This document shows, in pieces, positions 29,013-63,996 of a stretch of 64,000 nt of DNA. The position numbers and the translations under genes were made by a program. The notes beneath the pieces were generated by a model. It saw only the letters and a list, made by a program, of their open reading frames with translations. It searched no databases and had not been told where the DNA came from. The DNA is from Candidatus Omnitrophota bacterium (GTDB taxonomy: Bacteria > Ratteibacteria > UBA8468 > B48-G9 > JAFGKM01), in assembly GCA_023819375.1 (NCBI GenBank), contig JAMWDI010000004.1:130190-194189 (forward strand), written 5' to 3'. The first letter of the stretch is position 1. Every line of letters begins with the position of its first letter.

Positions 29013-29026
29013 TGAGAGAAGTTACA

Positions 29027-30052
29027 ATGAAAGATATTGCAAAAAAAGCAGGAGTTTCATATACAACTGTTTCTCTTACACTTAATGGGAAGGGGGATTT
29101 ATATAAAATCAAGAAGAAAACACAGGATAAAATTTTCAGGATTGCAAAAGAATTAAACTATAAAGGAAATATTTATGCAAGTTATTTAAGAAAAAGAAGA
29201 AGTAATTTTGTTGGAATAGTTGGTTCTACATATAATGTTCCAGTAAGGCAATATAGACAAAATTTAATTGCAGAAAAACTTAAAAGAATGGGATTTGATA
29301 TAATTATTCAGGATTTTCACTGGAGAAAGGATAGTTATATCTCGCTTATAGATGAAGTTTTAAAATTTAAACCAATAGGGCTTATAATTTCGGAACCAGA
29401 TGATCTTTCTTTGATGTACTATTTAAAGGATATAAAAAAATGGATTCCTGTAATTTTAATAGATGGACCTGAATATGATGGATTTGACCAGATTAGAATT
29501 GACAGAGAAAAAATTCCTTATATTGCAGTTCATCATTTGTGGAAAAGTGGATATAAAAATATTTATTTTACAATTCCATTTACTAAGGTAATATCCTATT
29601 GGGCAATAAAGGAAAGATATATGGGTTTTAAAAGGGCTTTTGAAGAAATTTTTGGTAAAAATAATGGAATAGAAAAGAATATGCTTTGGATAGATGAAAG
29701 TATTCAAAATCCTTATATGATAGGTTATAAAATAGCAGAGAAATATTTTGAAAAGTTCAAAAAAGATACAGGAATTGTTGCTTTAAATGACCAGATTGCA
29801 ATTGGAATTATGAAAAATTTACTTGAAAAAAATAAAAAAATTCCAGAAGAGATTGGCATTGTTGGAAGTGAAAATTTACCAGAAGGAGAATTTGTTATAA
29901 TTCCTCTTACTACAATAAGTTTTTCAATTGATAAATTAGTTGATAATGTGATTGAAATATTTTTGAAAAGAATAAATGGAGATAATAAGGATGTATTTAA
30001 AATAAAAATAAAACCAGAGATAATAATAAGAAAATCCACAGAAAGGAGGTGA
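29027..30052 (+). CDS. LacI-family transcriptional regulator
   Basis: [23 protein letters not shown] is a LacI HTH. A periplasmic-binding-fold sugar-binding domain follows. I chose the start at M6 of the track ORF. Confidence 0.7.
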
Positions 30053-30056
30053 AAAA

Positions 30057-30800
30057 ATGAGAAAGAATGGTTTCACTTTAATAGAATTACTTGTTGTAGT
30101 AGCAATAATTACAATTCTTGCTGCAATGCTTTTACCTGCATTAAGTAGAGCAAGGGAAAATGCAAGGAGAAGTGTATGTTTAAATAATTTAAAACAGATA
30201 GGTCTTGCAATTCATATGTATGCGCAGGATTACGATGACAATCTACCAACAAGATTGCCTCCACCTAGTTATGATGGACATGCTTTATGGTCAGGTAATG
30301 GTTATTATTGTGCACTTGGATTATTATTTCAAGGATATAGAGAATATGGAAAAGGTAAATATATTGCAGGGCCTGAGACATTTATATGTCCAAGTGCAAG
30401 AAAGACTTGGTCTTCTTTTGCTACTTTAAGAGGAATTAAAAATAATTTTGAAGTTGTAGGCCCTAATAAAGATGCAAGAGCAAATTATTCATATAATATC
30501 TCTAACATAATTTATGCTCCACCTGGATTTGCTTCTTGGGCTACTGTATATGGAAAATTATCAAGAGCAGTTGGAACTTCATATGCCTGTGCCGCTGATG
30601 CATTTAGTGTTGATTATGGATGGTTAAATCATCCTGATCCTAAAGATATTGGGCTTCCAGTTGGCTTTAATGTTTTATTATGGGATGGAAGTGTAAAGTG
30701 GATAGATGATAGGCATCATATTGTCTGTAATAGAAGTTCTTCAAATAGAAAACATAATCTTAATTTGTATTCTGATTTCTGGAGTTTTAAATTCAGATGA
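30057..30800 (+). CDS. Prepilin-type DUF1559-like protein
   Basis: [38 protein letters not shown] ... [25 protein letters not shown]. Confidence 0.75.
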
Positions 30801-31561
30801 TAAAAAAATTTACTTTTATATTTTTTACTTTTATCTTACTTTGCTTTTGTGAAAATGGCAGAATAATTTATAAAGGGGAAGGTATCTTTTCCTTTGAAGA
30901 ATTAACAGTTGAGATGTGGATAAAATTTAATTTTGATCCTAATGAAAAAACTGATAAAGTCTGGATACCAAAGGGTTCTATTTTAAATTTTGAAATACCT
31001 GAAGAAAAAACAATTTTTTCAATAAGTTGTGGACTTAAGGCAGGGAGAAAAGGGGAAGAGGACTCAAGATGTTATTTAAGAATTGGGTTTTGTATAGAAG
31101 GGAAAGAAATACCATATCCTGTTCTTATTGATTGTTCTAATTTTAGCAATAACTGGCATCATATAGCAATTTTATGGCAGGAGGGTAAAAAATTAACTAT
31201 TTATATTGATGGAAATGAAATTTTAAAGAGTTCATTACAGGAAAAAATTAAGAAAGATTTTGTAGGAAAATCAAAATTAATAATAGGAACTCCTCTTGTC
31301 TGGTTTTACGAAAATCAAATTGAAATAGATGAAATAAGGATATCTTCAATTGCAAGAAAGAAAGAGGAACTCTCAATTTATAAAAATATTATTGACCCAT
31401 ATGTTCTTTTTTATGAGAATTTTGAAAATATCAAAGAAGAAAATGGAGAAATTTTTACAGAACCATATATTGTGTCAATTGAAAGTAAAGGAAAATATAA
31501 AATAGAAAATGGAAAAATTGTTGAAGGCAAATTTGGAAAAGGATATTTATTTTCCAAATAG
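30797..31561 (+). CDS. Secreted concanavalin-A-like lectin / LamG-domain protein
   Basis: N-terminal hydrophobic signal. TVEMWIKF ... [25 protein letters not shown] ... IDEIRISS follows the LamG pattern. Confidence 0.55.
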
Positions 31562-31570
31562 GGGGATTGA

Positions 31571-34500
31571 ATGAGGAAATTTTTTATTTTGTTTTTAATT
31601 TGTTCCTTCTTTTCTTTTTCTTATGTTAAAAAATATGAAGAAATTGAAAAAGATGAATTTATTACATATAGATACCCAGTTATTAGAATACCATATGTTG
31701 AGAAAAAACCAGTTATAGATGGTATTGTAGATAAAGAAGAATGGGGAAATTTTGCTTTACTTTCACCTTTGATATCTTTACAAACAGGGAAAATGGTTGA
31801 TGGGATTGGGAATATTTATGCTGGATATGATAATGAAAATATTTATTTTGCCTTTCAATTTGGTAGACCTACTTATGCAGGTGAGCCAATTGCAGGTGAT
31901 GAACCGTTAAATGTTTGGGCAGATGATTGCATAGAATTTTTTATTAGACCTATTTTTGGAGAAAAATGGGAATATTCATTTGTTGGGAATGTTAAAAGTA
32001 TTTATGAAGAGGGAAAAAGAACACATTCAACAGATAAAAAATGGAAAATAAAATGGAATTTCAAGGCAAGAAAAACTGATTTTGGTTGGGAAGGTGAAAT
32101 GGAGATACCCTTAAAGGATATAGGGATAGAAAAAATTGAAAAAGGGAAAGTTATTGAAATAGCACCAACAAATAATCAAAAATCTCCAGTCGTAATGCAA
32201 TCTTGTTGGACTTATTTAAGAGACTGGTTTAGTCATTATGATTTTGGATATTTAATTTTAGGTGATAAGATACCATCTATAAGAATTTTGAAAGTAGGAG
32301 AGATAGATAAAAATCAGATAGGAGTTTTAATTGAAATTTCAAATTTTACAGATAAAAAATTTAATTATGATATTGAAATCTTTCTTTATAAACCTCTTTT
32401 GGAAGGATTAAATTATTTTAAATTTGTTGATGAAACATCAAATCCACTTGGAGCGCAGGCAGAAGTGGAACCAGAGACGGAAGCAAAGGATGTAATTTGT
32501 GAAGTAATGAAAAAATTGGAAGTTATTAAAGAATATAGAAAAAGTATAGAAATTGGAGAGAATTCTTCGGTAAGAATACCATTTTTATATGACTTTGAGG
32601 GAAAAGGTGATTTTGTTATTTACTATAAAATAAAGGATAAAAATGAGAATAAAATAATTGCATCATCAGCAATTCCATTTGAAAAAAAGTTACCTTTGAC
32701 AATTAAAATAATACCTTATATCTTATCTAAAGGTATTCTCGAAACTACAGTTGAATATTCAAAATTGAAAATAGATGAAAATTTTAATATAGAAATTTCT
32801 CTTATTGATGATGGAAAAACCCTGAAAAAATTAGAAAAAAAGGTTGATATTGAAAATCAAAAAAGTATATTTGAAATTCCTGTTAAAGATTTAATTCCAA
32901 AAAGTTATAAAATAAAATGTCAAATAAAAGATGAAGACAAAATCAAAGGCGAAATAGAGGAAATTTATAATATCCCACCCATTCCTGAATGGTGGGATAA
33001 TAAATTTGGTTATCCCGAAGTTTATGATGTAGTTCCAGAACCATGGAAACCTATGGAAAAAAAGAAAAATGGATTTAGTGTATGGAATAGAGAAATTATT
33101 TTTGATGAAATTAATGAAATAAAAAGTATAAAGAATTCTGGTAAAGAAATGCTAACAGGGCCAATAAGATTAAATTTTGAATTTTCTGATCCTTTTGAAT
33201 TTGGCAGAACAGAATGTATTGAAAGCAAAAAAACAAAGATAACATATAAAAAGGAATTTAAAAATGAAAAGCTAAAAGGGAAAATAATTCTTGAAAATGA
33301 ATTTGATGGATTTATGAAATATACACTTCTAATTGAACCCAAAGAAAAAATTGAGATAAAAAATCTTTTATTTGAAATACCATTAAAAAGGGAAATTGCT
33401 GAATATTACCAGAGAGGAAGCGTTGGGACACCATCTTCCTATCATGAAAGTTTAAAAGATCATAAAGATTATGGAAAAATACCAGAAAAAGGATTTAAGT
33501 TGCCTTTTGTTGAAGAAATATGGATAGGTAATGAAGAAATGGGAATAGAATATGTATGTGAAACAGATCAAAATTTTTCAAATTTAAATGATAAAGAAGT
33601 GGTTGAAGTTAAAGTTGATGGGAAAAATGTTATTTTAAAAATAAATTTTGTTAATAAACCAAAAGTTATAGAAAAACCTATTACATATCAATGGGCAATA
33701 ATACCTACACCTGTAAAACCCATGAACAAAGAGTTTTTGCATAATCTATATTTAACCCAATCTGGATTTTCAATAGAAAAAACTCTTGATAAAATACCGG
33801 AAACTACTTTTAGATTTATTGATGCAATTGTTGAGGGGGGAGCAAATGCTTTTTGTCAATGGGCCTGGAATAATCCTGAAAGTGTTTGGAATATAGATTT
33901 TGGTGCACCTGGATATAGGCCAACCGAAGAGAATAAGAAAAGAGAAAAGTTGTTTAGAGAAATTATTGACTATGCCCACAAGAAAGGAATTAAATGGGTT
34001 ATAATTTATGCAATATGGAATACATATCCTGATTGGCCAAATTTAAAAAATTATTGGGAAGAAACTGCTTTATATCCACTTTTACCAGGTTTTGGCGCTT
34101 ATATGTATTGTCCTCAAAAGCCATTTAGCGATTGGTATATTTATACTTTAAAAGAAACAATTGAAAAATTAAATATAGATGGTGTATATCTTGATAGTTC
34201 TGCACATCCAAGATTATGCACAAATATCCATCATGGTTGTGGATACATAGATGAAGATGGTAAAGTTCATGGAACATATCCAATATTTGCAACAAGAGAA
34301 TTTCATAAAAGGATTTATTTTTTATTTCATGGTGGATTGAAAAAAAATGGACTTGTATATGCTCACAATTCTCATTTTATTTATGCCTGTATTGAATCAT
34401 TTGTAGATGTTCATCATTGTGGAGAAGGTTCAACATTAACAAGAGATATTTTAATTCCAAAATTTTATGGATATCCTTTTGGAATACCTGTAAGTTTTAC

Positions 34501-35020
34501 AAGATGGAATAATCCTGTCTATCCTGAGACAAGAATGAATTCCTGGAGGTTTGTTTTACAATGTGATTCAACGATCAAAAGTCATCCTTCAATGATAATA
34601 AGTAAGAATATTTTTCCTGAGTATAAAGGTTTTGGTAGGGAATACTATATTAAACTTGGTTATGACACAAAAGGGGAGGTTGTTTATAAAATATGGCAAC
34701 TTTACAAAAAATTTGATTTTGAAAATTCTATATGGATACCAAATTGGAAAATTGAGAAATATGCGAAAGTGGAAGATCCTGATATATGGATATGTATGCA
34801 TTTAAATAAAGGTAAGGAAGCGATAGTTGTTGTATCTTCTTTTAAAGATGAAAATTTTGATGGATTTATTGAATTTAACTGGAAAGAGATGGGATTTGAA
34901 TATCCAAAATTTAAAATAATTGACTGGATAATAGACCAGGAAATAAAACCAGAGGAAAAGGGTGTAAAATTAAATGTAAAAGAAAAACTGTTTAGAGTAT
35001 TTTATATATCAAAAGATTGA
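31571..35020 (+). CDS. Large secreted multidomain protein: N-terminal CBM9-like carbohydrate-binding module, central beta-sandwich repeats, C-terminal glycoside-hydrolase-like TIM-barrel domain
   Basis: Signal peptide. IDGIVDKEEWGNFALLS..YAGYDNENIYFAFQF is CBM9/DOMON-like. C-terminal IKWVIIYAIWNTYPDWPN..DGVYLDSS..HHGCGYIDEDG resembles GH-like (beta/alpha)8 families. The exact family is not assigned. Confidence 0.55.
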   Translation: MRKFFILFLICSFFSFSYVKKYEEIEKDEFITYRYPVIRIPYVEKKPVIDGIVDKEEWGNFALLSPLISLQTGKMVDGIGNIYAGYDNENIYFAFQFGRPTYAGEPIAGDEPLNVWADDCIEFFIRPIFGEKWEYSFVGNVKSIYEEGKRTHSTDKKWKIKWNFKARKTDFGWEGEMEIPLKDIGIEKIEKGKVIEIAPTNNQKSPVVMQSCWTYLRDWFSHYDFGYLILGDKIPSIRILKVGEIDKNQIGVLIEISNFTDKKFNYDIEIFLYKPLLEGLNYFKFVDETSNPLGAQAEVEPETEAKDVICEVMKKLEVIKEYRKSIEIGENSSVRIPFLYDFEGKGDFVIYYKIKDKNENKIIASSAIPFEKKLPLTIKIIPYILSKGILETTVEYSKLKIDENFNIEISLIDDGKTLKKLEKKVDIENQKSIFEIPVKDLIPKSYKIKCQIKDEDKIKGEIEEIYNIPPIPEWWDNKFGYPEVYDVVPEPWKPMEKKKNGFSVWNREIIFDEINEIKSIKNSGKEMLTGPIRLNFEFSDPFEFGRTECIESKKTKITYKKEFKNEKLKGKIILENEFDGFMKYTLLIEPKEKIEIKNLLFEIPLKREIAEYYQRGSVGTPSSYHESLKDHKDYGKIPEKGFKLPFVEEIWIGNEEMGIEYVCETDQNFSNLNDKEVVEVKVDGKNVILKINFVNKPKVIEKPITYQWAIIPTPVKPMNKEFLHNLYLTQSGFSIEKTLDKIPETTFRFIDAIVEGGANAFCQWAWNNPESVWNIDFGAPGYRPTEENKKREKLFREIIDYAHKKGIKWVIIYAIWNTYPDWPNLKNYWEETALYPLLPGFGAYMYCPQKPFSDWYIYTLKETIEKLNIDGVYLDSSAHPRLCTNIHHGCGYIDEDGKVHGTYPIFATREFHKRIYFLFHGGLKKNGLVYAHNSHFIYACIESFVDVHHCGEGSTLTRDILIPKFYGYPFGIPVSFTRWNNPVYPETRMNSWRFVLQCDSTIKSHPSMIISKNIFPEYKGFGREYYIKLGYDTKGEVVYKIWQLYKKFDFENSIWIPNWKIEKYAKVEDPDIWICMHLNKGKEAIVVVSSFKDENFDGFIEFNWKEMGFEYPKFKIIDWIIDQEIKPEEKGVKLNVKEKLFRVFYISKD

Positions 35021-35029
35021 ATTTAAATT

Positions 35030-36385
35030 TCAATAATAACCTTCTTGTTCTTTAAGAATTTTTTGAATTTTTTTTACATCTATTTTATCAATTGGAACAT
35101 CTTTATCAAGAGAAATATATCCTGCAATTCCACCTGCATGCCCAATTGCCATACAGGTAGCCATAACTCTTATTGAAGCCATTGCTTTATGTTCTGCTGA
35201 AATACATCTTCCAACAACGATTAAATTTTTTGAACCCTCAGGGATTAGACATTTATAAGGTATACTGAAATAATCATTTTCAAGAGGTCCTAATTTTCTT
35301 TTTGTAGGTAAATAATCTCTAAATTTTTCTAAAGCAATACAATATTCTTTTGTAGAACACTCTTTTGTACATAAATGGACATTATCTTTCGTTCTTCCAA
35401 GAGGACAATGTATATCTATCCAGTAGGTCCCTCTACCTATACTATCTTCTGTCTTTTTGCCCTCTATTATATCTTGTTCTGTCAGAGTATATAAGCCCTT
35501 AATTTGCCTTGTTTCTCTTGCTCCTATATTTGTTGGTAAACATGAAATATATGAATTTTCAAATCCAGTTACATTTTCTTTTAAAAATTTCCAATATTTA
35601 TAAATTTGATCCCTTAAAAAGATTTCTCCATAAGTTAAATCAAAAACATCTGTTCCATCTCCACTATATCTTAATACATTGAAACTTCTTTCTCCTTTTC
35701 TAATAGTACTTCCTTTTCCTCCAAGTTCTTCATTATAAATTTTCAATTCACCTTTTTCTCTAAGTTTTCTTAATTTTTCCTTTGCTTCTTCAACAATTCT
35801 TTTCGTAATTTTATCCTCGTCAATCCCGGCAATTTTAAAAATACATCCAAGTGCCTGTGTTTTTCCATCAAAAAATCTACCTTTTACACATTTAAATCCG
35901 GATAAATAGGCAATATCAGCATCTCCTGTTGCATCAATGAATATTTTCCCTTTAATTTTCATTTTTCCACTTTTATTTACAACTTCTATTTCTTTTATTT
36001 CACCATTTTCAACTATAGAACTACAAACAAAAGAGTGGTACAAAATTTCCACTTTTTCTTCAAGTAATAATTTTTCACAGGATATTTTTAAAATTTCAGA
36101 ATCAAATGGTATTCCCCCTTTTTTATATGCAGTATCCCATTTTTCACATCCACCAAATTTATTGGTTTTTTCAATTAAAAATTTTAAAAATCCACCCACT
36201 GCAGGTTCTCTTTCATTCAAATAATGCCCCAAAATACTTCCAACAAGCCCATTTGTTGCCATTCCTCCTAAAAATCCATATCTTTCTATAAGTAAAACTT
36301 TTGCTCCAAGTTTAGCACAAGCCCAAGCAGAAGCCATTCCTGAAGGACCCCCTCCAACAACAATAATATCTCTTTCTATTACCAT
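35030..36385 (-). CDS. FAD-dependent oxidoreductase (FAD_oxidored family)
   Basis: IIVVGGGPSGMASAWACAKLGAKVLLIERYGFLGG. Paralog of 9404-10906. Confidence 0.7.
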   Translation of the reverse strand: MVIERDIIVVGGGPSGMASAWACAKLGAKVLLIERYGFLGGMATNGLVGSILGHYLNEREPAVGGFLKFLIEKTNKFGGCEKWDTAYKKGGIPFDSEILKISCEKLLLEEKVEILYHSFVCSSIVENGEIKEIEVVNKSGKMKIKGKIFIDATGDADIAYLSGFKCVKGRFFDGKTQALGCIFKIAGIDEDKITKRIVEEAKEKLRKLREKGELKIYNEELGGKGSTIRKGERSFNVLRYSGDGTDVFDLTYGEIFLRDQIYKYWKFLKENVTGFENSYISCLPTNIGARETRQIKGLYTLTEQDIIEGKKTEDSIGRGTYWIDIHCPLGRTKDNVHLCTKECSTKEYCIALEKFRDYLPTKRKLGPLENDYFSIPYKCLIPEGSKNLIVVGRCISAEHKAMASIRVMATCMAIGHAGGIAGYISLDKDVPIDKIDVKKIQKILKEQEGYY

Positions 36386-36547
36386 TTTTTAAAATTTTAA
36401 AATTTTTAAATGATACAACTTATTTCAAAAAAAATCAATAGAGGAAAAAAGAATTAAGAGAAATATCATAAGTATTTTAACTCTAATCCAGCATTCTTCT
36501 ATAAGCACAGATTACATTTTTCTTTATTGCTTTTACCTTTTATTAAG

Positions 36548-39535: not shown

Positions 39536-39591
39536 TTTTATCTCCTTTTAAGTAAAAAAGAATTAAATCACAAATAGTTTTCAAGTCAAGT

Positions 39592-45107: not shown

Positions 45108-45124
45108 ACTTATTCCTCCTTTTT

Positions 45125-46087: not shown

Positions 46088-46088
46088 C

Positions 46089-46841: not shown

Positions 46842-46886
46842 CCCCCTTTCTTATTTTATTTTTTATTTCTAAACAATACCTTTCCA

Positions 46887-51774: not shown

Positions 51775-51776
51775 TT

Positions 51777-54757: not shown

Positions 54758-54759
54758 TT

Positions 54760-56136: not shown

Positions 56137-56960
56137 TTTTTAAATGTTCCCAAAATTATATCAACTTTAATTGAAATTAAATAAATATCTTCTACAGGAT
56201 AAAAAATATGAGGGTTTTTTTCAACTATTAAATATCCTGAATAATTTATTTCATTAAGTGTTTTTTTAAATTTTGCCCAGTCAACGTCTCCATCTAAAAT
56301 TGGAACAAAAATATTTTCTTTTTCTTTAAAATCTTTTAAATGTATTTGAATAATATAATCCTTAAGAATTCTTAACCAACTATCTGGATATCCATAGCCG
56401 ATAACATTTCCTGTATCAAAATAGATTTTAATATATTGACTTCCAACCTTTTCTATAAAATCTAAAAAACTCAAAGGTGTCAATAAAAATTTATTTCTTA
56501 CATTTTCAATTCCAATATAGATTTTATATTCTTCAGCAATTTTAGAAATTTCTCTAAAAAAATTCAAAGCATTTTGATAACCGGTTAAATAATCAATATT
56601 TTCATTTATCCATCCTTCACATATAAGAACAACTTTGCAGTCCAATTCTTTTGCAATTTCAATACTTTTTTCAGTAAGTTTTAACAATCTTTTTCTTTTG
56701 TTTAAAGAAGTAGTTGGTAACAATCTGTAAGTTTCAACACATAATAAAGAAGGAATTTCTAATTTAAAATTTTTTGCTATATCTTTAATCTCTTTAATAA
56801 AACTCTTTGATGACTTAATATTTAATCTCCCACCTTCACTAAAGAAGTTTAATTCTATTCCATAAAATCCTGCTTTTTTTCCTATATCAAATATTTTCTC
56901 GTAGTTAAGTTTTTCTGGAAATGCACTTTCATTTATTCCTTTTTTAATATTCATCTGCAT
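56133..56960 (-). CDS. Sugar-phosphate isomerase/epimerase (xylose-isomerase-like TIM barrel)
   Basis: KKAGFYGIELNF ... IGIENV ... FDTGN. Confidence 0.55.
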   Translation of the reverse strand: MQMNIKKGINESAFPEKLNYEKIFDIGKKAGFYGIELNFFSEGGRLNIKSSKSFIKEIKDIAKNFKLEIPSLLCVETYRLLPTTSLNKRKRLLKLTEKSIEIAKELDCKVVLICEGWINENIDYLTGYQNALNFFREISKIAEEYKIYIGIENVRNKFLLTPLSFLDFIEKVGSQYIKIYFDTGNVIGYGYPDSWLRILKDYIIQIHLKDFKEKENIFVPILDGDVDWAKFKKTLNEINYSGYLIVEKNPHIFYPVEDIYLISIKVDIILGTFKK

Positions 56961-58314
56961 TTCCTACAAGTTTTTGAACATTGTAAGGAAGTTTATTTAA
57001 TTCTTCAACTTTTTTTCCAAATTTTCCACAAGTATTCTCTATAACCACAAAATCCATATCAGGTATAATAACATCATTCCAATAATCCCCAATTCCTCTT
57101 ACTGCTACATCAAGCATTATAACTATTTGATTACCAAGAGGTTGTGTTGAATTCAATGTTATTGCTCCATAAAATTCCTGACACTCAGTATATCCTGCAT
57201 TATGAGTTCCTGTATATGGTTTCAATTTTTCAAGTTCAATTTTTTTACCATAAATTTTACTTACTTCATCTGATTTTGATCTGAAAAAGTCTACAAGTGC
57301 CTTTTCCTGTAAATATGCAGGTAAATTTTCTTCACTTATTTTTTTCAACCAGAAAAGCCCTACTTTATATGCTTCTTCAATAAAACTAAACCAATATTTC
57401 TGATTTTCAGTTAATTTTTTTGGATTTTTAACTGCAATGACAGACCTTCTCACACAACTATTTAAACCATCTCTTTTTGGAGCAACTCCAAGATGAACAT
57501 AGTCACCCTCATTTATAACTCTATTTAATGCCTTTCCTATTAAAGTTCTATTTGCTGTGTTGGCTCCAACCATTATGTCCCACCCAAATTCTTCTGCACC
57601 AAGTTCTTTTGCAACAAGATATCCCCATCCTGCAACCTGAGTTTCAAGCATTCCAGGTTTTAAAACTGCAAGCATACATCTTAAAACAGTATCTCCAATC
57701 ATACAGGAATCTCTGATAAGCCGCATTTCATTATCACTTTTTTCATATTTAATTTTGTAATAAATTTCCTGTGCATCAACAACATTTTCTTTCCCATAAA
57801 CTTTTTCAAGATATTCAACAATACTTGCAGGAATGACTTGGCGAGGTGTTAAAAGAGCAATTGTTTTTGCCTTTCCATTGTTTGCCTCTTCAATAACATC
57901 TTCAATTTTTTCTGCTTTAATAGGATACTCTTCATCTGCAAGTTTTAGCATTTCAACTTTATGAACTTTTGCTTTTGCTCTTTCTGCAAGTTGTTCTGCA
58001 ATATAACCACCTTCAAGTCCAGCAATTATATGAAAACCTGTTTTTCCAATTACTCCTGCAACCTGTTCAATTTGTATGTTTGTATTTCCACCAAGATATG
58101 CAACGTCTCCATCATAATGTTCGTCAGAAAAAACAAATCCAACATCAAATCCATTTTCACTTAAAGCATTATAAACCTTTTTTTGCCTTTCTATAAACTC
58201 TTCTGTTGGTATTGAAAAAAATTTATCAATTGTTGGACAGTTTGAGAGAATTTTTTCAATTAATTTAAATTCTTTTTTAAATTCTTTTATTCTTATTTCA
58301 CCGATACCCTTCAT
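56944..58314 (-). CDS. M24-family metallopeptidase (Xaa-Pro aminopeptidase/creatinase-like) with N-terminal creatinase-type domain
   Basis: DSCMIGDTVL ... DYVHLGVAPKRDGLNSCVRRSVIAV is the pita-bread fold. Confidence 0.55.
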   Translation of the reverse strand: MKGIGEIRIKEFKKEFKLIEKILSNCPTIDKFFSIPTEEFIERQKKVYNALSENGFDVGFVFSDEHYDGDVAYLGGNTNIQIEQVAGVIGKTGFHIIAGLEGGYIAEQLAERAKAKVHKVEMLKLADEEYPIKAEKIEDVIEEANNGKAKTIALLTPRQVIPASIVEYLEKVYGKENVVDAQEIYYKIKYEKSDNEMRLIRDSCMIGDTVLRCMLAVLKPGMLETQVAGWGYLVAKELGAEEFGWDIMVGANTANRTLIGKALNRVINEGDYVHLGVAPKRDGLNSCVRRSVIAVKNPKKLTENQKYWFSFIEEAYKVGLFWLKKISEENLPAYLQEKALVDFFRSKSDEVSKIYGKKIELEKLKPYTGTHNAGYTECQEFYGAITLNSTQPLGNQIVIMLDVAVRGIGDYWNDVIIPDMDFVVIENTCGKFGKKVEELNKLPYNVQKLVGNADEY

Positions 58315-59303
58315 TTCTCCTCCTTTTTTCTATAAACTTCCTGGAGTATTTTAACTGATTTTATATTCTCCTCAATAGTTATACCTTTTACTTCCTCATC
58401 AAAATTCCCCTCTATTGCTTTTTTAAATTTATCAAGAGTCCATAGAAGAGAATCCTTAAATTCTTCCTTAGGAATATTTAAATATTCAATTCTATCTGAT
58501 TCTACTGGAGAATTTTTTCCATAAACGTAAAAAACTTTTCCATCTCTCAAATAGAGGACTCCATTTTCACCCTCTATCGTCCAGTAACCGGTCCAATCAG
58601 TTTGAATTCCTTTGCCTATCCACGTTGCATAATAATCAATAAAAATATCATCAAAAATCATATTTATAGAAACACACGCATTTCCCTTATAAGGACTATA
58701 TGAGGGATTAAATGAGTAAAATGATATTACTTTTTTTATCTCCTTTTCAAGAACATATCTTAAATCATCAAAATGGTGTATACTCATGTCATCCAAAACA
58801 GGCTCTTTTATCTCTTCTCTCCAATCATATGTTCTCATAATTCTTGAAAAATATATTGAAACATATGAAATTTTGCCCAATCTACCACTTTTTATAATCT
58901 CTCTCATAACTTTTAATTGTGGTGTACTTCTTTGATTCTGATTAACTAAAAAGACTACATTTTTTTCATTCTTTAATTTTAAAATCTCGGGTATTTCTTC
59001 AAAATTTAAAGTAAGTGGCTTTTCACATAAAATATTCATATTTTTAGATATTGCTTCCTTTGCAATCTTTAAATGGGTATCTGGAGGAGTAACAATAATG
59101 CATCCATCAATTTTTTCTTTTATTTCATTAAGTTCAGAATAAATAGGGAAATTTCTATATTTTTCATTATCTCTTAATTCTTTCCTTACTTTTTCAGATA
59201 CTTCAACAATACCTCCTATTTCCCAATCTTTCTCTTCAATAATATAATCAATCCACCTTCTTCCAAGTTTACCGGCACCAACAATAACAACTTTTTTTCT
59301 CAT
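58311..59303 (-). CDS. Gfo/Idh/MocA-family oxidoreductase
   Basis: MRKKVVIVGAGKLGRRWIDYI ... EKPLTLN. Confidence 0.65.
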   Translation of the reverse strand: MRKKVVIVGAGKLGRRWIDYIIEEKDWEIGGIVEVSEKVRKELRDNEKYRNFPIYSELNEIKEKIDGCIIVTPPDTHLKIAKEAISKNMNILCEKPLTLNFEEIPEILKLKNEKNVVFLVNQNQRSTPQLKVMREIIKSGRLGKISYVSIYFSRIMRTYDWREEIKEPVLDDMSIHHFDDLRYVLEKEIKKVISFYSFNPSYSPYKGNACVSINMIFDDIFIDYYATWIGKGIQTDWTGYWTIEGENGVLYLRDGKVFYVYGKNSPVESDRIEYLNIPKEEFKDSLLWTLDKFKKAIEGNFDEEVKGITIEENIKSVKILQEVYRKKEEK

Positions 59304-61180
59304 TCTTTCACCTCTTCTTTTGCTCTCTTAATACTATTAAAGAAACTTTCAGGTTTACCTTCAAGTAAATTTGGAACAAAGGGTTTAATTTCTCCTTTTT
59401 TTATTTTCTCTTCCATTTCCTCTCTTTTCTTTTTATCCATCCAATAATATTCATACCAACCATATCCAGGTGTATAACTTTGCCAATAAATCCAAACATA
59501 GTCAGAATAACTTTCTCTTAAAAGTGGAATAAGTTTTTCGTACATACCACCGTCTTCTCTTTCTCTGCCTGGTGCTTCATATGTATTTGCTCTTCCACCA
59601 ACTCCACTATTTAAAAATAATTTTTCAGGTTCAACCTTTATATCAAAATTTTCCTTTAAAAATGGCATAACTTCAACAAAAAACTTTGTATTGTAGTAAG
59701 GTCCTTTAATTGTATCTCCTATATGTGGTGAATATTCTCCATCTATAATCTTTGTCTTTCCTTTACTTCCAGAAATCATCCCTGAGAGAAAAGAATAGAA
59801 TAATCTATGTTTCATATCAGGATATAAATAACCAGGAGAAACAGATGATTTTTCTAAATTTCCCCAATGACATTGAAAAATACTTCTTCCAAGTCCAACC
59901 ATTCTTGAACCATCAACACTTATAACAACTATATCTGGTTTTTCTTCTTGTAAAATTTCAATAATTTCTTTACCCTTTTCAAAGGCTCTTTTTGCGCAAT
60001 CTTCAAAATTATATTTTTCTTTATAATATCCATGATAAGTAAAAATATGTGTTTTTTTACCAGGTGTTTCACAGTCAAGAAATATTCCTTTACAGTTTGT
60101 TTCTTTTACAATTTTACCTATTATTCTGAAATTTTCTTTAATTATTTCCCATATTTTTTCGTCAAATAACCAATCAACATTCTCTTCATTTCTTAAATAA
60201 GCACTAACCCATAAAAAATTATCCTTCCATCTTTCAAATTTCAAATTTTTCAGTATATCAATCTGTGGTTTTAATTTTTCATAATCAATTTTAACTGTAT
60301 AAGAAAATGGCCAGAAACCACCATAAGGACAGATATTATCAATATTATCAAATCCTATTGTAATTCCATCAAAATAAAAATACTGTTCTTCAAGTTCTTT
60401 TAATCTTTCTTTCAATTGAGATACTGAAATTCTTCCCCATCCACTTTGAATTAACTTAGGATAAGTTACTGGTGGATAAACAAATGAAATTTTTTCAATA
60501 TTATCTTTATATTTTAAAGAAAAGAAACTATCTTTTTTTACTTCCTTTTTTATTAAAATTAAATTCCACCCCTTATTTATTTTAAATTTAAATTCGTCTT
60601 TCCCTTCAATTAATTCTCCATTTACAAAAAATTTAATCTCATTATCTGAACTTATAAAAAAGTTGCTTTCCTTTTCATCTGATGAAAATAACCAGAAAGA
60701 AAGATAATAAACACCTTCTTCAAATCCTTCAAATTTTAATATATCTAAAGTTGAACCAAAAAATTTCCACTCAGGTAAAGATGGTTTTATTTCTTTTTCA
60801 TTCAACTTCTTTTTCGCAGGCCCTTTTATTAAAAAAGTTCTTAAATATTTCTCTGTCTTTACTTCTCTTATTTCTGATTTTGCTTTTTCTCCTTCTATTG
60901 TTTGTGATTCAACATAAAAATAAATAGTAAAATCTGAAGGAAGATATGAAATTTCAAATTTGTGTTTTTTTCTCAAGTTTTTATCAATTAAAAATGCACA
61001 ATATTGTGAATTAAGCAATGACTTAAATGGACTATAAAATAATCTTGAATCTGCTTCTTTATCTGTTTCCCATTCAATTGTTACTGAAAAGGAATTTGAA
61101 TATGTTTTAAGATTTAAAATTTCTAATCCTTTGCAACTTAAAAAAGAAAAAATATAAATAATAATAAAATATCTTCTCAT
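59300..61180 (-). CDS. Secreted hypothetical protein: N-terminal beta-sandwich, C-terminal glycoside-hydrolase-like domain
   Basis: Signal peptide MRRYFIIIYIFSFLSC. I recognise no family. Confidence 0.45.
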   Translation of the reverse strand: MRRYFIIIYIFSFLSCKGLEILNLKTYSNSFSVTIEWETDKEADSRLFYSPFKSLLNSQYCAFLIDKNLRKKHKFEISYLPSDFTIYFYVESQTIEGEKAKSEIREVKTEKYLRTFLIKGPAKKKLNEKEIKPSLPEWKFFGSTLDILKFEGFEEGVYYLSFWLFSSDEKESNFFISSDNEIKFFVNGELIEGKDEFKFKINKGWNLILIKKEVKKDSFFSLKYKDNIEKISFVYPPVTYPKLIQSGWGRISVSQLKERLKELEEQYFYFDGITIGFDNIDNICPYGGFWPFSYTVKIDYEKLKPQIDILKNLKFERWKDNFLWVSAYLRNEENVDWLFDEKIWEIIKENFRIIGKIVKETNCKGIFLDCETPGKKTHIFTYHGYYKEKYNFEDCAKRAFEKGKEIIEILQEEKPDIVVISVDGSRMVGLGRSIFQCHWGNLEKSSVSPGYLYPDMKHRLFYSFLSGMISGSKGKTKIIDGEYSPHIGDTIKGPYYNTKFFVEVMPFLKENFDIKVEPEKLFLNSGVGGRANTYEAPGREREDGGMYEKLIPLLRESYSDYVWIYWQSYTPGYGWYEYYWMDKKKREEMEEKIKKGEIKPFVPNLLEGKPESFFNSIKRAKEEVKE

Positions 61181-61191
61181 TTTTTATTTTT

Positions 61192-61911
61192 TTATTCATA
61201 AAAAGCACTCCAGACAGCATATTTTACATGAAAAGTACTCCAGTCAATAAGTTTTACACTTCCATCACAGAATAAAACATTATAGCCTATTAAATGAGGT
61301 TGAGGAACTCTTAGTCTTTCTCCATTATAATCATAAAATCCATTACAAGCAGGTGTCATAACCCTTATTCCACCTAAAGCAGAAGCATCTGTTACCGGAA
61401 AACAAACCATATAATAAAAGTTTCTTGGTTTTGTTTCTGTTAAAAGTATTTGTGTTGATGGCTTTTTAATTTTACTTATTTTATAATTACCTGCCCATCT
61501 GCCCTCAAAAAGAGTCATTCCATAATCAGAAAAATAAGTTCTACCACATCCCCAACCTCCTCCCGGATCGTAATTCCATCTATTGAATTTTAAAATTGAT
61601 GGGCATTTTAGTAATTTCGTATCTTTTAAATATCCTCTATCTATAAATCTGTTATACCAAAAAGCCTCTGAATTAGGAGTATTTAAGAAAACAGTTGATT
61701 CAATAAATTTTGGTAAATAATCATCATAATCAATTGTATACATGGCAAAAGCAAGTCCTAATTGTCTTAAATTATTCATACAACTTGCCTGTCTTGCTCT
61801 CTCCCTTGCTTTTGAAAGAGCTGGTAGCAACATTGCAGCAAGGATAGCAATTATCGCAACTACAACAAGTAATTCTATTAATGTAAATCCCTTCCTTTTC
61901 ATATTTCTCAC
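61192..61911 (-). CDS. Prepilin-type DUF1559 (H-x9-DG) protein
   Basis: [38 protein letters not shown] ... [18 protein letters not shown]. Confidence 0.75.
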
Positions 61912-62007
61912 CTCCCTTCATTTTATATATATTATACATTAGTTTTTATTTTGTCAAATTCTTTCCTCTTTTGAATTCGGAGGACGGGGCTTGTCTTTAT
62001 ATAAAAA

Positions 62008-63996
62008 TTAATTAAAATCAAGAGTTGCTTTTTCATACAGATTTGCTTTTTTTCTCATTTCTATTGTTTTTATCAGTCCTGCTTCTTTTAATCTGCCATA
62101 TGGAAGATAGCCATGAAAAATATATTTATTTTCAAGTAATTTCAATAATTCAAGTATAAATTTTTCTCTTTCTTCTGGACTTTTACCTGAAATAATTAAT
62201 GAATTCTCTTTTATATATATACCAGTTTTACCAAAATCACCTATCAAGATACCTTTATCTGTCTTAAATTCTTTTTTTCTTATTATTGGCATATTTATCT
62301 CATATCTTTTATCAAGTGCTTCACTATACCAAACCCTAAAAAATGCATATATTCTTTTCCCTGCTCTTTCATCAATAAAATCATAATTATCTGGAATAAC
62401 TATAGGTAAACCATTTAGATTTTCATCAATATATTTAAAATTGATAATTTCAGCCTTTGATGATAAAAAAATTTCTGATTGGAATTCAATTTTTATATTT
62501 AAATTTTTAGTTTTTGGCAAAAGGAATCTTCCTGTTTTTTTATCAACTATTTCAAATTTGGTTGGCTTTTCATTTATAACTACATTTTCTACTTTATGAT
62601 TGTCAGGGATTAGAAATTCACAGATAATATTTTCAGGTAACTTTTCAAAATTTAAATAACCACTTATTTGTTTTCCATAATCTTTTTCTTCCATTTTAAA
62701 ACTACCTTTACCTTTATTTTCTTTTAAATCTTTAATCTTCATAATTACAAGAAATATATCTGCATCCCACCTTTTTAATTCATAAGAAAATTCTGAAAAA
62801 TCTTTATTGAAATTTAATTCAACCGGTAAACCAAAATATTCACAGATTAAGAAAACACCATCGCCAAATATATTATTTTCAATTTTAAATTTAAATCTTT
62901 TCTTTTCTGGATAAGTATTTCCAATAGATAAAATACTTCCAATACCATCTCCAAATCTTGAACATATTACCATTTCATCTTCACATCTTAATCCAGAAAT
63001 AGGTCTATATCCTGATAAGTTTTCTTTTTCTGGTATGTCAGATACTTTAATCATTTCAGGAACTCCCATAACATCATCAACACTAAAAGTAGTGCCAAAA
63101 CATAAAGCACCAATCTTTGTAAAACCAAACATCTTTCTATAAATATCTCTTAAAAATTCAGATGAAAATTTCTCAATATCAATCCTATAAGGAACTTGTC
63201 TATCTCCCCAGTGTGTGCAATGTAAACTTATTGGTTTTGTTCCAAGTCTTATTCTGTTTATAAATTGTGCATAAATTGGGTTATCTACATTCCCCCCAAA
63301 TGAACCTCCTTCTAATAAAAATACATCTGTATTCATACATGTGGGCCATGTATTTGAAGCATCACTTGCTACTGCCAATCTGTATCCTCTTTTATCTTTT
63401 GGTAAATTCCTTATTGCGTTAAATAACTGAGAGATACCAATACCTTCATCTACATATAAACCTTTTTCGTCAAATGATAAACCTTCTGTCTTTGATAATA
63501 CTTTTTCACCTCTATATTTAAAGCCACCATTTCCTCTTATATTGTCCATACATATTGCTGATAAAGAAATTTCTTCTCTAATTTTTTCAAAATCCTTTAA
63601 AGTATCTTCCCCAAATTTTGTATACCACCAATACATTCTTGGTCCACCATTATTTCTTCCTAATGGGCCATAATTATAAATACAATGTGGTAAGCCCTCT
63701 TTTATATCTTCATCTTTATAGATTTTATTTGCAAGTTCTTCTTCACAGAAATTGCATAAATAAAATCCAACTGCACATCCAGAATTTATGACCTTACCTG
63801 CCCAAATATTTTTTCTCCAGTTGTGAAATTTATCATAATCTTCAAGATATTCCCAGTAAGGTGTCTTTTTCCATCCTTCTTCTTGTTTATATCCAGAAAA
63901 ATATTCTTTTTTACCATACCAATCCCCAAGGCGTTTATATCCTCCAAATTTCCAGTACCATCCTTGTCCAAATCTTCTAAATAATTCAAGTGACAA
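62008..63996 (-). CDS. Large hypothetical protein, possibly glycoside-hydrolase-like. The N-terminus may extend beyond the window.
   Basis: 662-aa ORF that reaches the window edge. No signal peptide in the visible N-terminus. Confidence 0.4.
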   Translation of the reverse strand: MSLELFRRFGQGWYWKFGGYKRLGDWYGKKEYFSGYKQEEGWKKTPYWEYLEDYDKFHNWRKNIWAGKVINSGCAVGFYLCNFCEEELANKIYKDEDIKEGLPHCIYNYGPLGRNNGGPRMYWWYTKFGEDTLKDFEKIREEISLSAICMDNIRGNGGFKYRGEKVLSKTEGLSFDEKGLYVDEGIGISQLFNAIRNLPKDKRGYRLAVASDASNTWPTCMNTDVFLLEGGSFGGNVDNPIYAQFINRIRLGTKPISLHCTHWGDRQVPYRIDIEKFSSEFLRDIYRKMFGFTKIGALCFGTTFSVDDVMGVPEMIKVSDIPEKENLSGYRPISGLRCEDEMVICSRFGDGIGSILSIGNTYPEKKRFKFKIENNIFGDGVFLICEYFGLPVELNFNKDFSEFSYELKRWDADIFLVIMKIKDLKENKGKGSFKMEEKDYGKQISGYLNFEKLPENIICEFLIPDNHKVENVVINEKPTKFEIVDKKTGRFLLPKTKNLNIKIEFQSEIFLSSKAEIINFKYIDENLNGLPIVIPDNYDFIDERAGKRIYAFFRVWYSEALDKRYEINMPIIRKKEFKTDKGILIGDFGKTGIYIKENSLIISGKSPEEREKFILELLKLLENKYIFHGYLPYGRLKEAGLIKTIEMRKKANLYEKATLDFN

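Follow-up and report, generated by a model that had tools for sequence, protein, structure and literature searches.

The 64,000-nucleotide stretch of Omnitrophota DNA analysed here (the window) raises the question of why genes for DUF1559 proteins recur beside genes for sugar-type regulators and exported glycan-type proteins. The original prediction described three such cassettes (a, b and c). Pfam confirmed all three where they had been placed, save that the LacI gene of cassette a starts at 29012 and not at 29027, but a fourth cassette (d) and a pilus engine with two DUF1559 genes had been overlooked; the pattern is real and wider than first described. The layout is a promoter, often a sugar-type repressor, a pilin, then at least one large protein exported by Sec, whose domains are of the CBM, LamG, beta-helix, GH123-like or TIM-barrel kinds, and cytoplasmic enzymes of sugar-modifying families. 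The plus-strand cassettes are as follows.

25372-28635, plus: fourth cassette (d), with promoter box (Pfam; promoter box)
25420/25429-26175, plus: first DUF1559 pilin of d (Pfam)
26203-26940, plus: second DUF1559 pilin of d (Pfam)
26965-28635, plus: exported 556-aa beta-helix protein of d, pectate-lyase/GH28-like (Pfam; signal-peptide-like N-terminus)
28977-35020, plus: cassette a, whole, with promoter box (Pfam, signal peptides, NCBI names, promoter box)
29012-30052, plus: LacI regulator of a (Pfam)
30057-30800, plus: DUF1559/N_methyl pilin of a (Pfam)
30797-31561, plus: exported LamG protein of a (Pfam; signal peptide)
31571-35020, plus: exported 1149-aa GH123_N-like protein of a (Pfam GH123_N, E 4e-19; signal peptide)

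The 1149-aa protein is named 'DUF6067 family' by NCBI and has a weak GHL6 match in Pfam. The CBM9 domain once ascribed to it was not detected by Pfam, and its link to a CBM9 protein is a weak BLAST match only. The minus-strand cassettes comprise longer series of enzymes.

38675-48135, minus: cassette b, whole, with promoter box (Pfam)
48080-46887, minus: ROK regulator of b (Pfam)
46841-46089, minus: DUF1559 pilin of b (Pfam)
46087-45125, minus: pilin-proximal Gfo/Idh/MocA protein of b (Pfam)
45107-43824, minus: DegT aminotransferase of b (Pfam)
43827-42574, minus: ceramidase-N-like protein of b (Pfam Ceramidase_alk, N-terminal part only)
42590-40617, minus: exported 657-aa LamG protein of b (Pfam)
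40620-39592, minus: distal Gfo/Idh/MocA protein of b (Pfam)
39535-38675, minus: xylose-isomerase-like (XI-like) TIM protein of b (Pfam)
50761-61960, minus: cassette c, whole, with promoter box (Pfam)
61911/61902-61192, minus: DUF1559 pilin of c (Pfam)
61180-59300, minus: exported 626-aa protein of c, two beta-sandwich domains and a TIM barrel (AF2)
after the 626-aa gene, minus: Gfo/Idh/MocA, M24, XI-like TIM, MttB-like and Amidohydro_2 proteins of c (Pfam)
53954-51777, minus: GH63/MGH1-like protein of c (Pfam)
51774-50761, minus: MtaA/URO-D-like protein of c (Pfam)
62008-63996 and beyond, minus: 3ʹ part of the gene for a 1102-aa protein (no Pfam match)

Family-model searches with the 626-aa protein gave no match. 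Its AF2 model, of middling confidence (pLDDT 68), combines a signal peptide with a pair of beta-sandwich domains and a (beta/alpha)8 barrel of generic type, making the description 'GH-like' plausible. A likeness to Cwp19 was rejected, the match being no better than those to dozens of generic TIM barrels. Cassette c carries no regulator; upstream of it lies the 1102-aa gene, which has a signal-peptide-like extension upstream of its called start and ends another cassette. In a near-identical MAG (L098), this fifth cassette, just past the window end, reads DUF1559, a 757-aa CBM9 protein, a 236-aa protein, MttB-like, GH88-like and the 1102-aa protein. None of the window cassettes contains a transporter gene. 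An IclR-led operon without DUF1559 (14111-1214), taken as a control, encodes no exported protein.

The window has four intergenic TTGACAAA boxes, each 35-57 bp upstream of a cassette's first gene and predicted to be a sigma-70-like promoter.

25372, plus: TTGACAAA box of the fourth cassette
28977, plus: TTGACAAA box of cassette a
48128, minus: TTGACAAA box of cassette b
61957, minus: TTGACAAA box of cassette c

The promoters and 5ʹUTRs of cassettes c and d are about 85% identical, suggesting that the pilin gene was duplicated along with its promoter.

What kind of proteins are the DUF1559 products? All seven in the window carry the G|FTL(I/V/M)E motif and score over the TIGR02532 cut-off, with PF07596 and N_methyl above cut-offs and an H-X9-DG motif, placing them in the same family as the DUF1559/SBP_bac_10/H-X9-DG prepilins of the PVC group. 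In the AF2 model (pLDDT 88, pTM 0.84), an N-terminal helix of 50 residues carries a head of beta-sheet. They are true type IV pilin-fold proteins. The prepilin-peptidase site, Glu5 and the assembly helix are common to all paralogues, and identity is about 71% over the first 55 residues (the assembly helix) and about 23% over the remainder (the head), a pattern to be expected of substrate-specific subunits. Two of the seven belong to the engine operon, and each other pilin or pilin pair heads a cassette.

17036-22962, plus: type IVa pilus engine genes, ATPases and platform protein (Pfam T2SSE, T2SSF)
17036-18754, plus: PilB assembly ATPase (phmmer against PDB, PilB, E 1e-140)
18755-19900, plus: PilT retraction ATPase (phmmer against PDB, PilT, E 2e-103)
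19900-21618, plus: second PilB/GspE-type ATPase (Pfam T2SSE)
21643-22962, plus: PilC/GspF platform protein (Pfam T2SSF)
22977-23720, plus: DUF1559 pilin (Pfam N_methyl with SBP_bac_10; TIGR02532)
23745-24425, plus: DUF1559 pilin (Pfam N_methyl with SBP_bac_10; TIGR02532)
24440-25081, plus: GspG-like pilin (Pfam N_methyl with T2SSG; TIGR02532)

This operon (17036-25081: PilB, PilT, second PilB/GspE, PilC and three pilins) adjoins the cassettes, and the order PilC, DUF1559, GspG-like pilin is found again in an Omnitrophota MAG (L002). As extension and retraction ATPases are both encoded, the engine is predicted to be retractile. No secretin, prepilin peptidase or PilMNOP gene was found within the window. 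The idea of a shared machine thus stands, in that a pilus engine adjoins the cassettes, but because that engine includes a true PilT, 'type IV pilin' is preferred to 'pseudopilin', and 'secretion machine' is likewise less apt.

The linkage was counted in the window and nine relatives' loci. These ten lineage loci, a small sample picked for their likeness to either one pilin or the 626-aa protein, hold 17 DUF1559 runs apart from those of the engine operon; counting was done by hand on gene-context tables, and signal peptides were called by a crude hydrophobicity rule. Directly after 15 of the 17 runs comes a Sec-exported protein at least 250 aa long (P ~4e-12 to 1e-11), in most cases with CBM, LamG or GH-like domains, bearing out, for this lineage, the claim that DUF1559 genes mark glycan-type gene clusters. 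Of eight sugar-type regulators, five have a DUF1559 run as their immediate downstream neighbour (P ~5e-5 to 1e-3): LacI and ROK in the window, and LacI-like, GntR/PBP and DeoR in relatives (L100-L102). The regulator-then-pilin order accordingly holds for cassettes a and b but fails for cassette c; 12 of the 17 runs lack a regulator directly upstream, and in only two of these 12 (L084, L089) is one found within three genes. The claim that the pilin start overlaps or abuts the regulator's stop fits cassette a, with its 4-nt gap (30052/30057); a spacing of 4-5 nt occurs in two lineages, which suggests co-transcription.

Whole cassettes are kept at 56-63% protein identity in L082 and L103. In L082, a pilin 56% identical to that of cassette b occurs with a DegT gene (41%) and a Gfo-family gene (28%), which may be a paralogue, its best window match being the distal Gfo gene. 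L103 has a counterpart of cassette c, 63-89% identical; there, the orthologue of its pilin (72%) precedes a different 732-aa protein, and that of the 626-aa protein follows another pilin paralogue. Pilin-partner pairing is therefore not strictly conserved between relatives.

Does the rule extend beyond this lineage? Among 82 upstream neighbours from 80 PVC-wide loci, none was LacI or an upstream ROK, so the genome-wide claim fails when extended to the PVC group. Neighbours were heterogeneous (more than 120 families; 144 different Pfam families matched), and neither the regulator rule nor a dominant CAZyme link was found across the 80 loci. The neighbour counts show enrichment for exported partners and regulators in the lineage, but PVC-wide only an excess of exported neighbours (34/56 versus 112/299, P 0.0017). 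This excess was already noted in 2021: Tuwongella immobilis has a large DUF1559 paralogous expansion whose flanking genes often encode signal peptides, and whose products are expressed and fractionate with membranes (PMC8567305). In Planctopirus limnophila, no other group of paralogues is as large as this family (PMC10632474). Such published reports neither assign a function nor connect the family with sugar regulators or CAZyme-like genes. In the Planctomycetota sample, a small exported neighbour (<200 aa) accompanies 44% of DUF1559 genes versus 23% of control genes, whereas in the window's lineage the neighbour is large, CBM/LamG/GH-like and often under a sugar repressor.

We tentatively favour the reading that each cassette supplies its own inducible pilin to one retractile pilus shared by all, which would serve to capture glycans or display enzymes. 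The cognate sugar would relieve the repressor, so that a cassette's pilin and exported proteins are made together; the shared engine could polymerise any paralogue into a common filament, since the peptidase site, Glu5 and helix are kept in all. The divergent head would form a substrate-specific filament surface that binds glycan or serves as a dock for the exported proteins with which the cassette binds and cuts it. PilT-driven retraction would then bring captured polymer to the cell surface, where the exported enzymes would cut it, the products being imported and processed in the cytoplasm. Pili-like fibres of Planctomycetes do bind dextran (PMC5394234). Against this reading count the pilin head, in which no lectin or CBM fold is recognisable, the cassette b pilin, directly followed by a cytoplasmic enzyme and not by an exported protein, the failure to find a docking module common to the exported partners, and the loose pairing between relatives. 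So do the failure to find secretin, prepilin peptidase or PilMNOP genes in the window, the mixed neighbours across the PVC group, and the question of import: a type IV pilus is not known to carry sugars across the inner membrane, and the window cassettes encode no transporter.

It is rather unlikely that DUF1559 proteins are instead cassette-specific, T2SS-like pseudopilins that recognise folded exoenzymes and push them through the outer membrane. Classical T2SS (GspG-K) likewise combine prepilin-type subunits with a GspE-type ATPase and a GspF-type platform, and their likely clients are exported hydrolases too, but they have no PilT, and GspC, D, L and M were not found within the window. All seven DUF1559 proteins fail the GspG equivalog (36-45 bits against a cut-off of 88.85), with the helix alone matching; they exceed GspG by about 100 residues and form many client-linked paralogues instead of a fixed set of five pseudopilins. 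L103 does not keep the window's cognate pairing, which such adaptors imply.

An apparatus for predatory or epibiotic attack, in which pilins and lytic proteins target host or prey envelope glycans, peptidoglycan and glycolipids while cytoplasmic enzymes salvage amino sugars, is improbable. Control by LacI, ROK, GntR and DeoR is typical of free-glycan catabolism, as are CBM9, CBM4_9, GH29, sulfatase, GH2 and pectate-lyase-like partners; dozens of generic TIM barrels equal the Cwp19 match, and the window holds no giant gene.

Distinctly improbable, too, is a lack of any functional coupling, whereby abundant, often duplicated DUF1559 genes with their own strong promoter land or persist at the heads of operons, and neighbours are shuffled as the genes recombine through their conserved 5ʹ ends. 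The c/d promoter and 5ʹUTR similarity, which implies duplication with the promoter, would fit, as would the modules shuffled between the window and L103, the >120 neighbour families across 80 PVC loci and the T. immobilis genes 'evenly spread around the genome' (PMC8567305). However, the lineage enrichment of downstream partners (P ~1e-11) and regulators (P ~1e-4), the broad-sample exported-neighbour excess, the conservation of cassettes at 56-63% identity and the 4-5 nt spacing in two lineages argue otherwise.

That the cassettes are biosynthetic, with Gfo/Idh/MocA and DegT making an unusual amino sugar to decorate pilin or surface glycan, is very hard to credit: pilin glycosylation genes often adjoin pilin genes, and the cassette b pair resembles nucleotide-sugar 3-dehydrogenase/aminotransferase pairs (closest NCBIfam models, UDP-GlcNAc 3-dehydrogenase and PseC), but it occurs in one window cassette only and scores far below the equivalog cut-offs, as all cassette enzymes score below theirs, while glycosyltransferase, oligosaccharyltransferase, flippase and nucleotidyltransferase are absent from every cassette and catabolic-type repressors and GH/CBM partners predominate.

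The pilus-loading reading has partial precedents. The chitin-regulated pilus (ChiRP) of Vibrio is a substrate-linked type IV pilus, and Streptococcus sanguinis PilC is a modular type IV pilin with a grafted lectin module. The latter resembles the proposed arrangement in having a glycan-binding module of concanavalin-A/LamG type displayed on a pilus, but here LamG and CBM modules sit on separate Sec-exported proteins encoded beside the pilin. CbpC/GP25 of Ruminococcus albus is a cellulose-binding pilin (PMC3672088). Like ChiRP, it is a type IV pilin tied to adhesion to a polysaccharide, or induced by one, within a utilisation programme, with PilB and PilT engines; both differ in having one pilus, one substrate and a pilin inside the pilus gene cluster, whereas here many divergent pilins, with different enzyme cassettes and their own sugar regulators, share one engine.

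The SusC/SusD analogy originally drawn holds for layout but not for hardware. Bacteroidota polysaccharide-utilisation loci (PULs) likewise occur as many paralogous loci per genome, with a substrate-responsive regulator, a surface-component marker gene that makes them recognisable from sequence, exported glycan-binding and -cutting proteins and downstream sugar-processing enzymes. The window, however, has no TonB-dependent transporter and no SusD fold, the cassettes show no uptake route, and Sus-type import clusters are lacking in Omnitrophota (preprint 10.64898/2026.06.07.730766). The regulators of the cassettes are LacI, ROK, GntR and DeoR rather than HTCS, ECF-sigma and SusR, in about two thirds of loci none adjoins the pilin, and what marks them is a protein of type IV pilin fold that depends on a separate shared engine. 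If our reading is true, the pilin would fill the surface glycan-capture role of SusD/E/F-type proteins with entirely different hardware, and one retractable pilus with interchangeable substrate-specific subunits would forage for polysaccharides.

Scanning every ORF of 100 aa or more in the window with Pfam bore out the three DUF1559-led gene clusters of the original prediction (cassettes a, b and c) at the coordinates given there and located a fourth, cassette d, which that prediction had not included. The G+C content of the window was 26-35%. Directly upstream of the cassettes lay a type IVa pilus operon (17036-25081, plus strand; the engine), the core of which looked complete and which carried three pilin genes.

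Pilus engine and DUF1559-led cassettes of the window
17036-18754, plus: PilB assembly ATPase (E 1e-140 against solved PilB structures)
18755-19900, plus: PilT retraction ATPase (E 2e-103 against solved PilT structures)
19900-21618, plus: second PilB/GspE-type ATPase
21643-22962, plus: PilC/GspF
Downstream of PilC/GspF in the engine operon, plus: two DUF1559 genes and a GspG-like pilin
25420-28635, plus: cassette d, two DUF1559 genes (25420-26940); exported beta-helix protein (26965-28635)
29012-35020, plus: cassette a, LacI (29012-30052); DUF1559/N_methyl (30057-30800, after a 4-nt spacer); LamG (30797-31561); 1149-aa protein
48080-38675, minus: cassette b, ROK (48080-46887); DUF1559 (46841-46089); Gfo/Idh/MocA; DegT; Ceramidase_alk-N-like; 657-aa LamG; Gfo/Idh/MocA; xylose isomerase (XI)-like TIM barrel
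61911-50761, minus: cassette c, DUF1559 (61911-61192); 626-aa protein; Gfo/Idh/MocA; M24; XI-like TIM barrel; MttB-like; Amidohydro_2; GH63/MGH1-like; URO-D-like

The gene order PilC, DUF1559, GspG-like pilin was also found in another Omnitrophota MAG (locus L002). No prepilin peptidase, secretin or PilMNOP was seen within the 64-kb window, and no GspC, GspD secretin, GspL or GspM among its ORFs of at least 100 aa; the latter result, together with the PilT match, ruled out a classical type II secretion system (T2SS). The gene content of the engine therefore indicates that the window combines seven DUF1559 genes with a retractile type IVa pilus engine rather than a classical T2SS.

All seven DUF1559 proteins of the window had a prepilin-peptidase site, K/R-G↓F-T-L-(I/V/M)-E with Glu5, followed by a hydrophobic helix. 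They scored 23-35 bits against TIGR02532 (cut-off 16.3), also exceeded the cut-off of Pfam N_methyl, and reached 39.6-53 bits against PF07596 (SBP_bac_10; cut-off 23.3), the last match covering only profile positions 2 to ~46 of 268. TIGR04294, the model of the C-terminal H-X9-DG motif (cut-off 19 bits), was passed by three of them (46089-46841, 25420-26175 and 26203-26940), and the alignment showed the DG(S/H)V part of this motif in every one, the histidine being missing from 30057-30800. Assignment to GspG was rejected, as all seven failed the equivalog TIGR01710 (36-45 bits, cut-off 88.85) and matched it over the N-terminal 55-65 residues only, except 61192-61911, which reached profile position 88 of 134. 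The Verru_Chthon cassette model TIGR02596 was likewise rejected (19-22 bits, cut-off 70), with the N-terminal helix alone matching. The AlphaFold2 model of the cassette b pilin (110 homologues; pLDDT 87.9, pTM 0.84) consisted of a helix at residues 11-61 and a beta-rich head, that is, a type IV pilin fold; on this predicted structure the Pfam name 'SBP_bac_10' is misleading, the protein being a pilin with an enlarged head and not a solute-binding protein. The window proteins belong to the type IV pilin superfamily and, by their PF07596 scores, to the DUF1559/H-X9-DG family. Mean identity among the seven paralogues was 71% over the first 55 mature residues and 23% over the heads, and such a conserved stem with a divergent head is as expected of subunits that have one common engine and different surfaces.

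A regulator had been predicted to come first in every cassette. Cassette c has none, and the rule fits about a third of the cassettes. Upstream of cassette c lies the 3ʹ part of a gene whose 1102-aa product had no Pfam match; in L098, a near-identical MAG locus that continues past the end of the window, this gene closes a further cassette (DUF1559, CBM9 protein, 236-aa protein, MttB-like, GH88-like, 1102-aa protein). Sites of the form TTGACAAA occurred ten times in the window, four of them intergenic (25372 and 28977 on the plus strand, 48128 and 61957 on the minus strand), and these four lay 35-57 bp ahead of the first gene of a cassette, namely the cassette d pilin, LacI, ROK and the cassette c pilin. 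From this placement, each cassette seems to be headed by one promoter type, situated either ahead of the regulator or immediately ahead of the pilin. A consensus promoter scan of the AT-rich region did no better than shuffled sequence, the TTGACAAA box alone standing out. Operator motifs for LacI and ROK, which the original prediction had proposed as a check, did not emerge, the repeat finder giving no palindromes upstream of LacI, ROK or the cassette c and d pilins.

To compare relatives of the window lineage, we collected homologues of the cassette b pilin on long contigs and the neighborhoods of relatives of the 626-aa protein, and annotated their contexts with Pfam.

DUF1559-led loci of the lineage sample, genes in order
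L082: DUF1559; CBM_4_9 protein (1006 aa); 307-aa protein; Gfo; DegT; further genes; Amidohydro_2; GHL6/GHL10
L084: GntR two genes upstream; DUF1559; exported 420-aa protein; CBM_4_9 with GH123_cat; GHL10; phosphodiesterase; Ceramidase_alk
L086: two DUF1559 genes; PcRGLX/LamG protein (1330 aa)
L088: DUF1559; DUF4838
L089: GntR/PBP; XI-like TIM barrel; IS110 element; DUF1559; GH123; 892-aa protein; DUF1559; Fe-S protein; Gfo; URO-D
L100: LacI-like; 5-nt gap; DUF1559; CBM_4_9 protein (1316 aa); GH29 fucosidase; sulfatase; URO-D
L101: GntR/PBP; DUF1559; GH123; LamG
L102: DeoR; DUF1559; LamG protein (1064 aa); F5/8-type C; CBM9; DUF6785/6784; URO-D
L103: 1167-aa protein; two DUF1559 genes; 732-aa protein; DUF1559; GH2_N; DUF1559; 707-aa protein; Gfo; M24; MttB; Amidohydro_2; GH63; URO-D

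With the engine operon left out, 17 runs of one or more consecutive DUF1559 genes were counted. By hand count from the context tables, 15 of the 17 were immediately followed by a gene for a protein of 250 aa or more with a Sec signal (binomial P ~4e-12 at a background of ~13%); cassette b and, in L089, the second run did not conform. These loci were picked by similarity to one pilin or one partner protein and signal peptides were called by a simple hydrophobicity rule, so orders of magnitude weigh more than exact values. Eight sugar-type regulators were present, three of them in the window (IclR, LacI and ROK) and the other five in relatives; of the eight, five stood directly upstream of a DUF1559 run (P between 5e-5 and 1e-3 across the backgrounds assumed). 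The placement of pilins after sugar repressors is tight, and the two are probably co-transcribed. Within this lineage the recurrence is real and strongly non-random. As side observations, public gene calls appeared 5ʹ-truncated at L098 9279-9989, L098 5625-5865 and L100 10848-11487; the L098 DUF1559 gene was called at 195 aa and gave no Pfam match, and signal-peptide-like sequence lay ahead of the called starts of the 1102-aa and 1316-aa partners.

The refuting condition of the original prediction, DUF1559 genes without enrichment beside regulators or secreted CAZyme-like genes, was applied here to the PVC group as a whole. For a broad sample, 80 loci were taken from GTDB species genomes, mostly of Planctomycetota and Verrucomicrobiota, and their genes were predicted with an in-house caller that used the DUF1559 genes as anchors. 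The 82 upstream neighbors matched 144 Pfam families, of which LamG was the most frequent (5), and the 96 downstream same-strand genes matched 125 families. Phmmer searches of the 80 loci with the window regulators returned no LacI and two ROK genes, both downstream; when the regulators of relatives were added as queries, six sugar-type regulators were found in all, four of them (in L071, L081, L014 and L049) directly adjacent to a DUF1559 run. For the most part this survey argued against any regulator or CAZyme rule of universal reach, and a cassette rule for the whole family everywhere found no support in these 80 loci. Heterogeneous neighbors and the lack of LacI indicate that the regulator/CAZyme rule is specific to certain lineages. 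The only general signal was an excess of exported neighbors: 34 of the 56 next same-strand genes encoded a signal-peptide-like N-terminus, compared to 112 of 299 controls (P 0.0017). In Planctomycetota (L013-L080), the gene after DUF1559 had such an N-terminus in 69% of cases (controls, 36%) and was shorter than 200 aa in 44% (controls, 23%); this follower appears to be another, small kind of partner protein.

Conservation among relatives showed which parts of a cassette stay together. Cassette c was kept in L103 and L104, with identities of 63% for the 626-aa protein, 67% for Gfo, 89% for M24, 67% for MttB, 68% for the amidohydrolase and 68% for GH63. The cassette b pilin recurred in L082 (56% identical), where a DegT gene (41%) and a member of the Gfo family accompanied it; the Gfo-family gene, only 28% identical and matching best the distal Gfo gene of the window, is perhaps a paralogue. 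The L103 orthologue of the cassette c pilin (72% identical overall, 71% in the head) preceded a 732-aa protein without a window homologue, and the orthologue of the 626-aa protein came after a different pilin paralogue; this orthology pattern ruled out strict cognate pilin-partner pairs. The orthologues of the cassette d and cassette c pilins stood in tandem in L103. Judging from the sequence comparison, the cassette d pilin of the window has moved beside the engine, carrying its promoter and 5ʹUTR. The promoters and 5ʹUTRs of the cassette c and d pilins were ~85% identical, including the GGAGGTGA ribosome-binding site, which indicates that the gene was duplicated along with its promoter. Taken together, the pairing and tandem patterns of L103 indicate that modules are shuffled, the pilin staying with the larger locus and not with one client protein; the shuffling may proceed through recombination between pilin paralogues. 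Separately, DUF1559 genes alternated strictly with genes for large exported proteins in L103 1-12124 (1167-aa protein, two pilins, 732-aa protein, pilin, GH2_N, pilin, 707-aa protein), and a four-gene block of this array was missing from the window.

The exported partners were diverse. They carried CBM9, CBM4_9, LamG, beta-helix, GH123, GH2_N, DUF4838 or PcRGLX domains, or nothing recognizable, and a search for a common docking module among them found none. In the 1149-aa protein of cassette a, where a CBM9 domain had been proposed, Pfam detected no CBM9 and matched GH123_N (NCBI name, DUF6067 family). The 626-aa protein of cassette c had no match in Pfam, NCBIfam or PDB sequences and eight detectable homologues; its AlphaFold2 model (pLDDT 68) predicted a signal peptide, two beta-sandwich domains and a (beta/alpha)8 barrel. 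Naming substrates from the enzyme families was abandoned, since every cytoplasmic enzyme fell below its NCBIfam equivalog cut-off and the substrates therefore cannot be named.

An operon on the minus strand (14111-1214), headed by IclR (14111-13122), offered a comparison. Its co-directional genes included four paralogous Fe-S proteins, at least one of them QueG/DUF1730-like, an FAD oxidoreductase, a U32-like protein, DUF1284, a GH28 without signal peptide and a 10-TM DUF6785/6784 protein, with no DUF1559 gene and no exported protein. The joint absence of the last two fits a link of the pilins to exported proteins and not to sugar operons generally. A 774-aa Fe-S protein related to those of this operon lay directly after a DUF1559 gene in L089 (10749-13073). 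None of the window cassettes encoded a membrane transporter. The multi-pass DUF6785/DUF6784 protein (1214-3103, minus) had a 35%-identical homologue inside the DUF1559 cassette of L102 (15482-17416) and is the sole candidate inner-membrane importer near any cassette.

Several further gene associations were observed. MttB-superfamily and MtaA/URO-D-like genes recurred together in or near DUF1559 cassettes (window 54760-56136 and 50761-51774, minus; L098, L102 and L103), URO-D-like genes alone in L089, L100 and L018, and an MttB-like gene alone in L069. No corrinoid-binding protein was visible alongside these genes in the cassettes, and the recurrence may reflect demethylation of methylated sugars or amines. 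GH123 is a family known for glycosphingolipid beta-N-acetylgalactosaminidases. In L084 (12027-20197), GH123, a type I phosphodiesterase and a neutral/alkaline ceramidase-like gene shared one cassette; the ceramidase-like protein of cassette b (42574-43827, minus) matched the N-terminal part of Ceramidase_alk and had no signal peptide. A glycolipid target of such cassettes is conceivable. Between cassettes a and b (35030-38385, minus) lay genes for an FAD-dependent oxidoreductase, a BadF/BcrAD-type ATPase and a DUF2229/HGD-D-like protein, the latter two resembling the activator and a component of 2-hydroxyacyl-CoA dehydratase.

We tentatively propose, on gene content and order, that the cassette pilins would be induced along with their own cassettes and that the shared engine would build them into one filament. 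The surface they lend it would be substrate-specific and serve to capture glycans or to display enzymes, and PilT retraction would then draw the substrate to the cell. It is decidedly more doubtful that DUF1559 pilins in general are interchangeable, substrate-induced subunits of a retractile glycan-capturing pilus, an Omnitrophota/PVC counterpart of SusD-type capture proteins. The order of pilin and then exported protein would also suit secretion adaptors, but PilT is present, other T2SS parts are absent and pilin-partner pairing is not conserved, and we regard this role as rather unlikely. An attack on prey or host cell walls, to which the Omnitrophota literature and the GHL10, GH123 and ceramidase content point, bears on the substrate more than on the mechanism, and we hold it to be unlikely. 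Set beside the recurrence in this lineage, a lack of any functional coupling between pilins and neighbors seems quite improbable, and pilin glycosylation as the explanation deserves very little credence.

Considered as a hypothesis, capture or display on a shared retractile filament would be well motivated by these gene arrangements. Precedents for polysaccharide-tied pili are the chitin-regulated pilus of Vibrio, the cellulose-binding pilin CbpC/GP25 of Ruminococcus albus (PMC3672088) and the dextran-binding fibers of Planctomycetes (PMC5394234). The suggested likeness to the polysaccharide utilization loci of Bacteroidota held for the layout and failed for SusC and SusD: the TonB_dep_Rec, Plug and SusD models had no match in the window ORFs or in the contexts of relatives. 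The cassettes are thus an analogue of such loci, not a member. No earlier idea of pilin-led cassettes was found in the searchable literature outside subscription journals, nor was a description there of many divergent pilin paralogues, each in its own sugar-regulated enzyme cassette, combined with one engine.

Among protein families without an assigned function, DUF1559 is one of the largest in Planctomycetota, Verrucomicrobiota, Lentisphaerota and Omnitrophota. A genome carries from tens to about a hundred copies, and the searchable papers give the family no function. The window lineage offers a clear lead, as sugar-responsive repressors, exported glycan-type proteins and a retractile engine all adjoin the pilin genes, and it bears on how PVC-type bacteria without Sus or TonB capture polysaccharides; it also provides a sequence marker by which glycan-utilization loci could be sought in uncultured lineages. 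Were the pilins tied to nothing more than secretion, or to an assault on the cell walls of prey, their supply together with their own clients would still make an unusual case. If DUF1559 pilins in general are such interchangeable capture subunits, this would give a reason for DUF1559 being the largest unexplained paralogue family of these phyla, account for the composition of the dextran-binding fibers of Planctomycetes and explain polymer harvest in lineages without Sus-type or TonB-type glycan importers; pilin-led cassettes could then predict PVC glycan-utilization loci from sequence alone.
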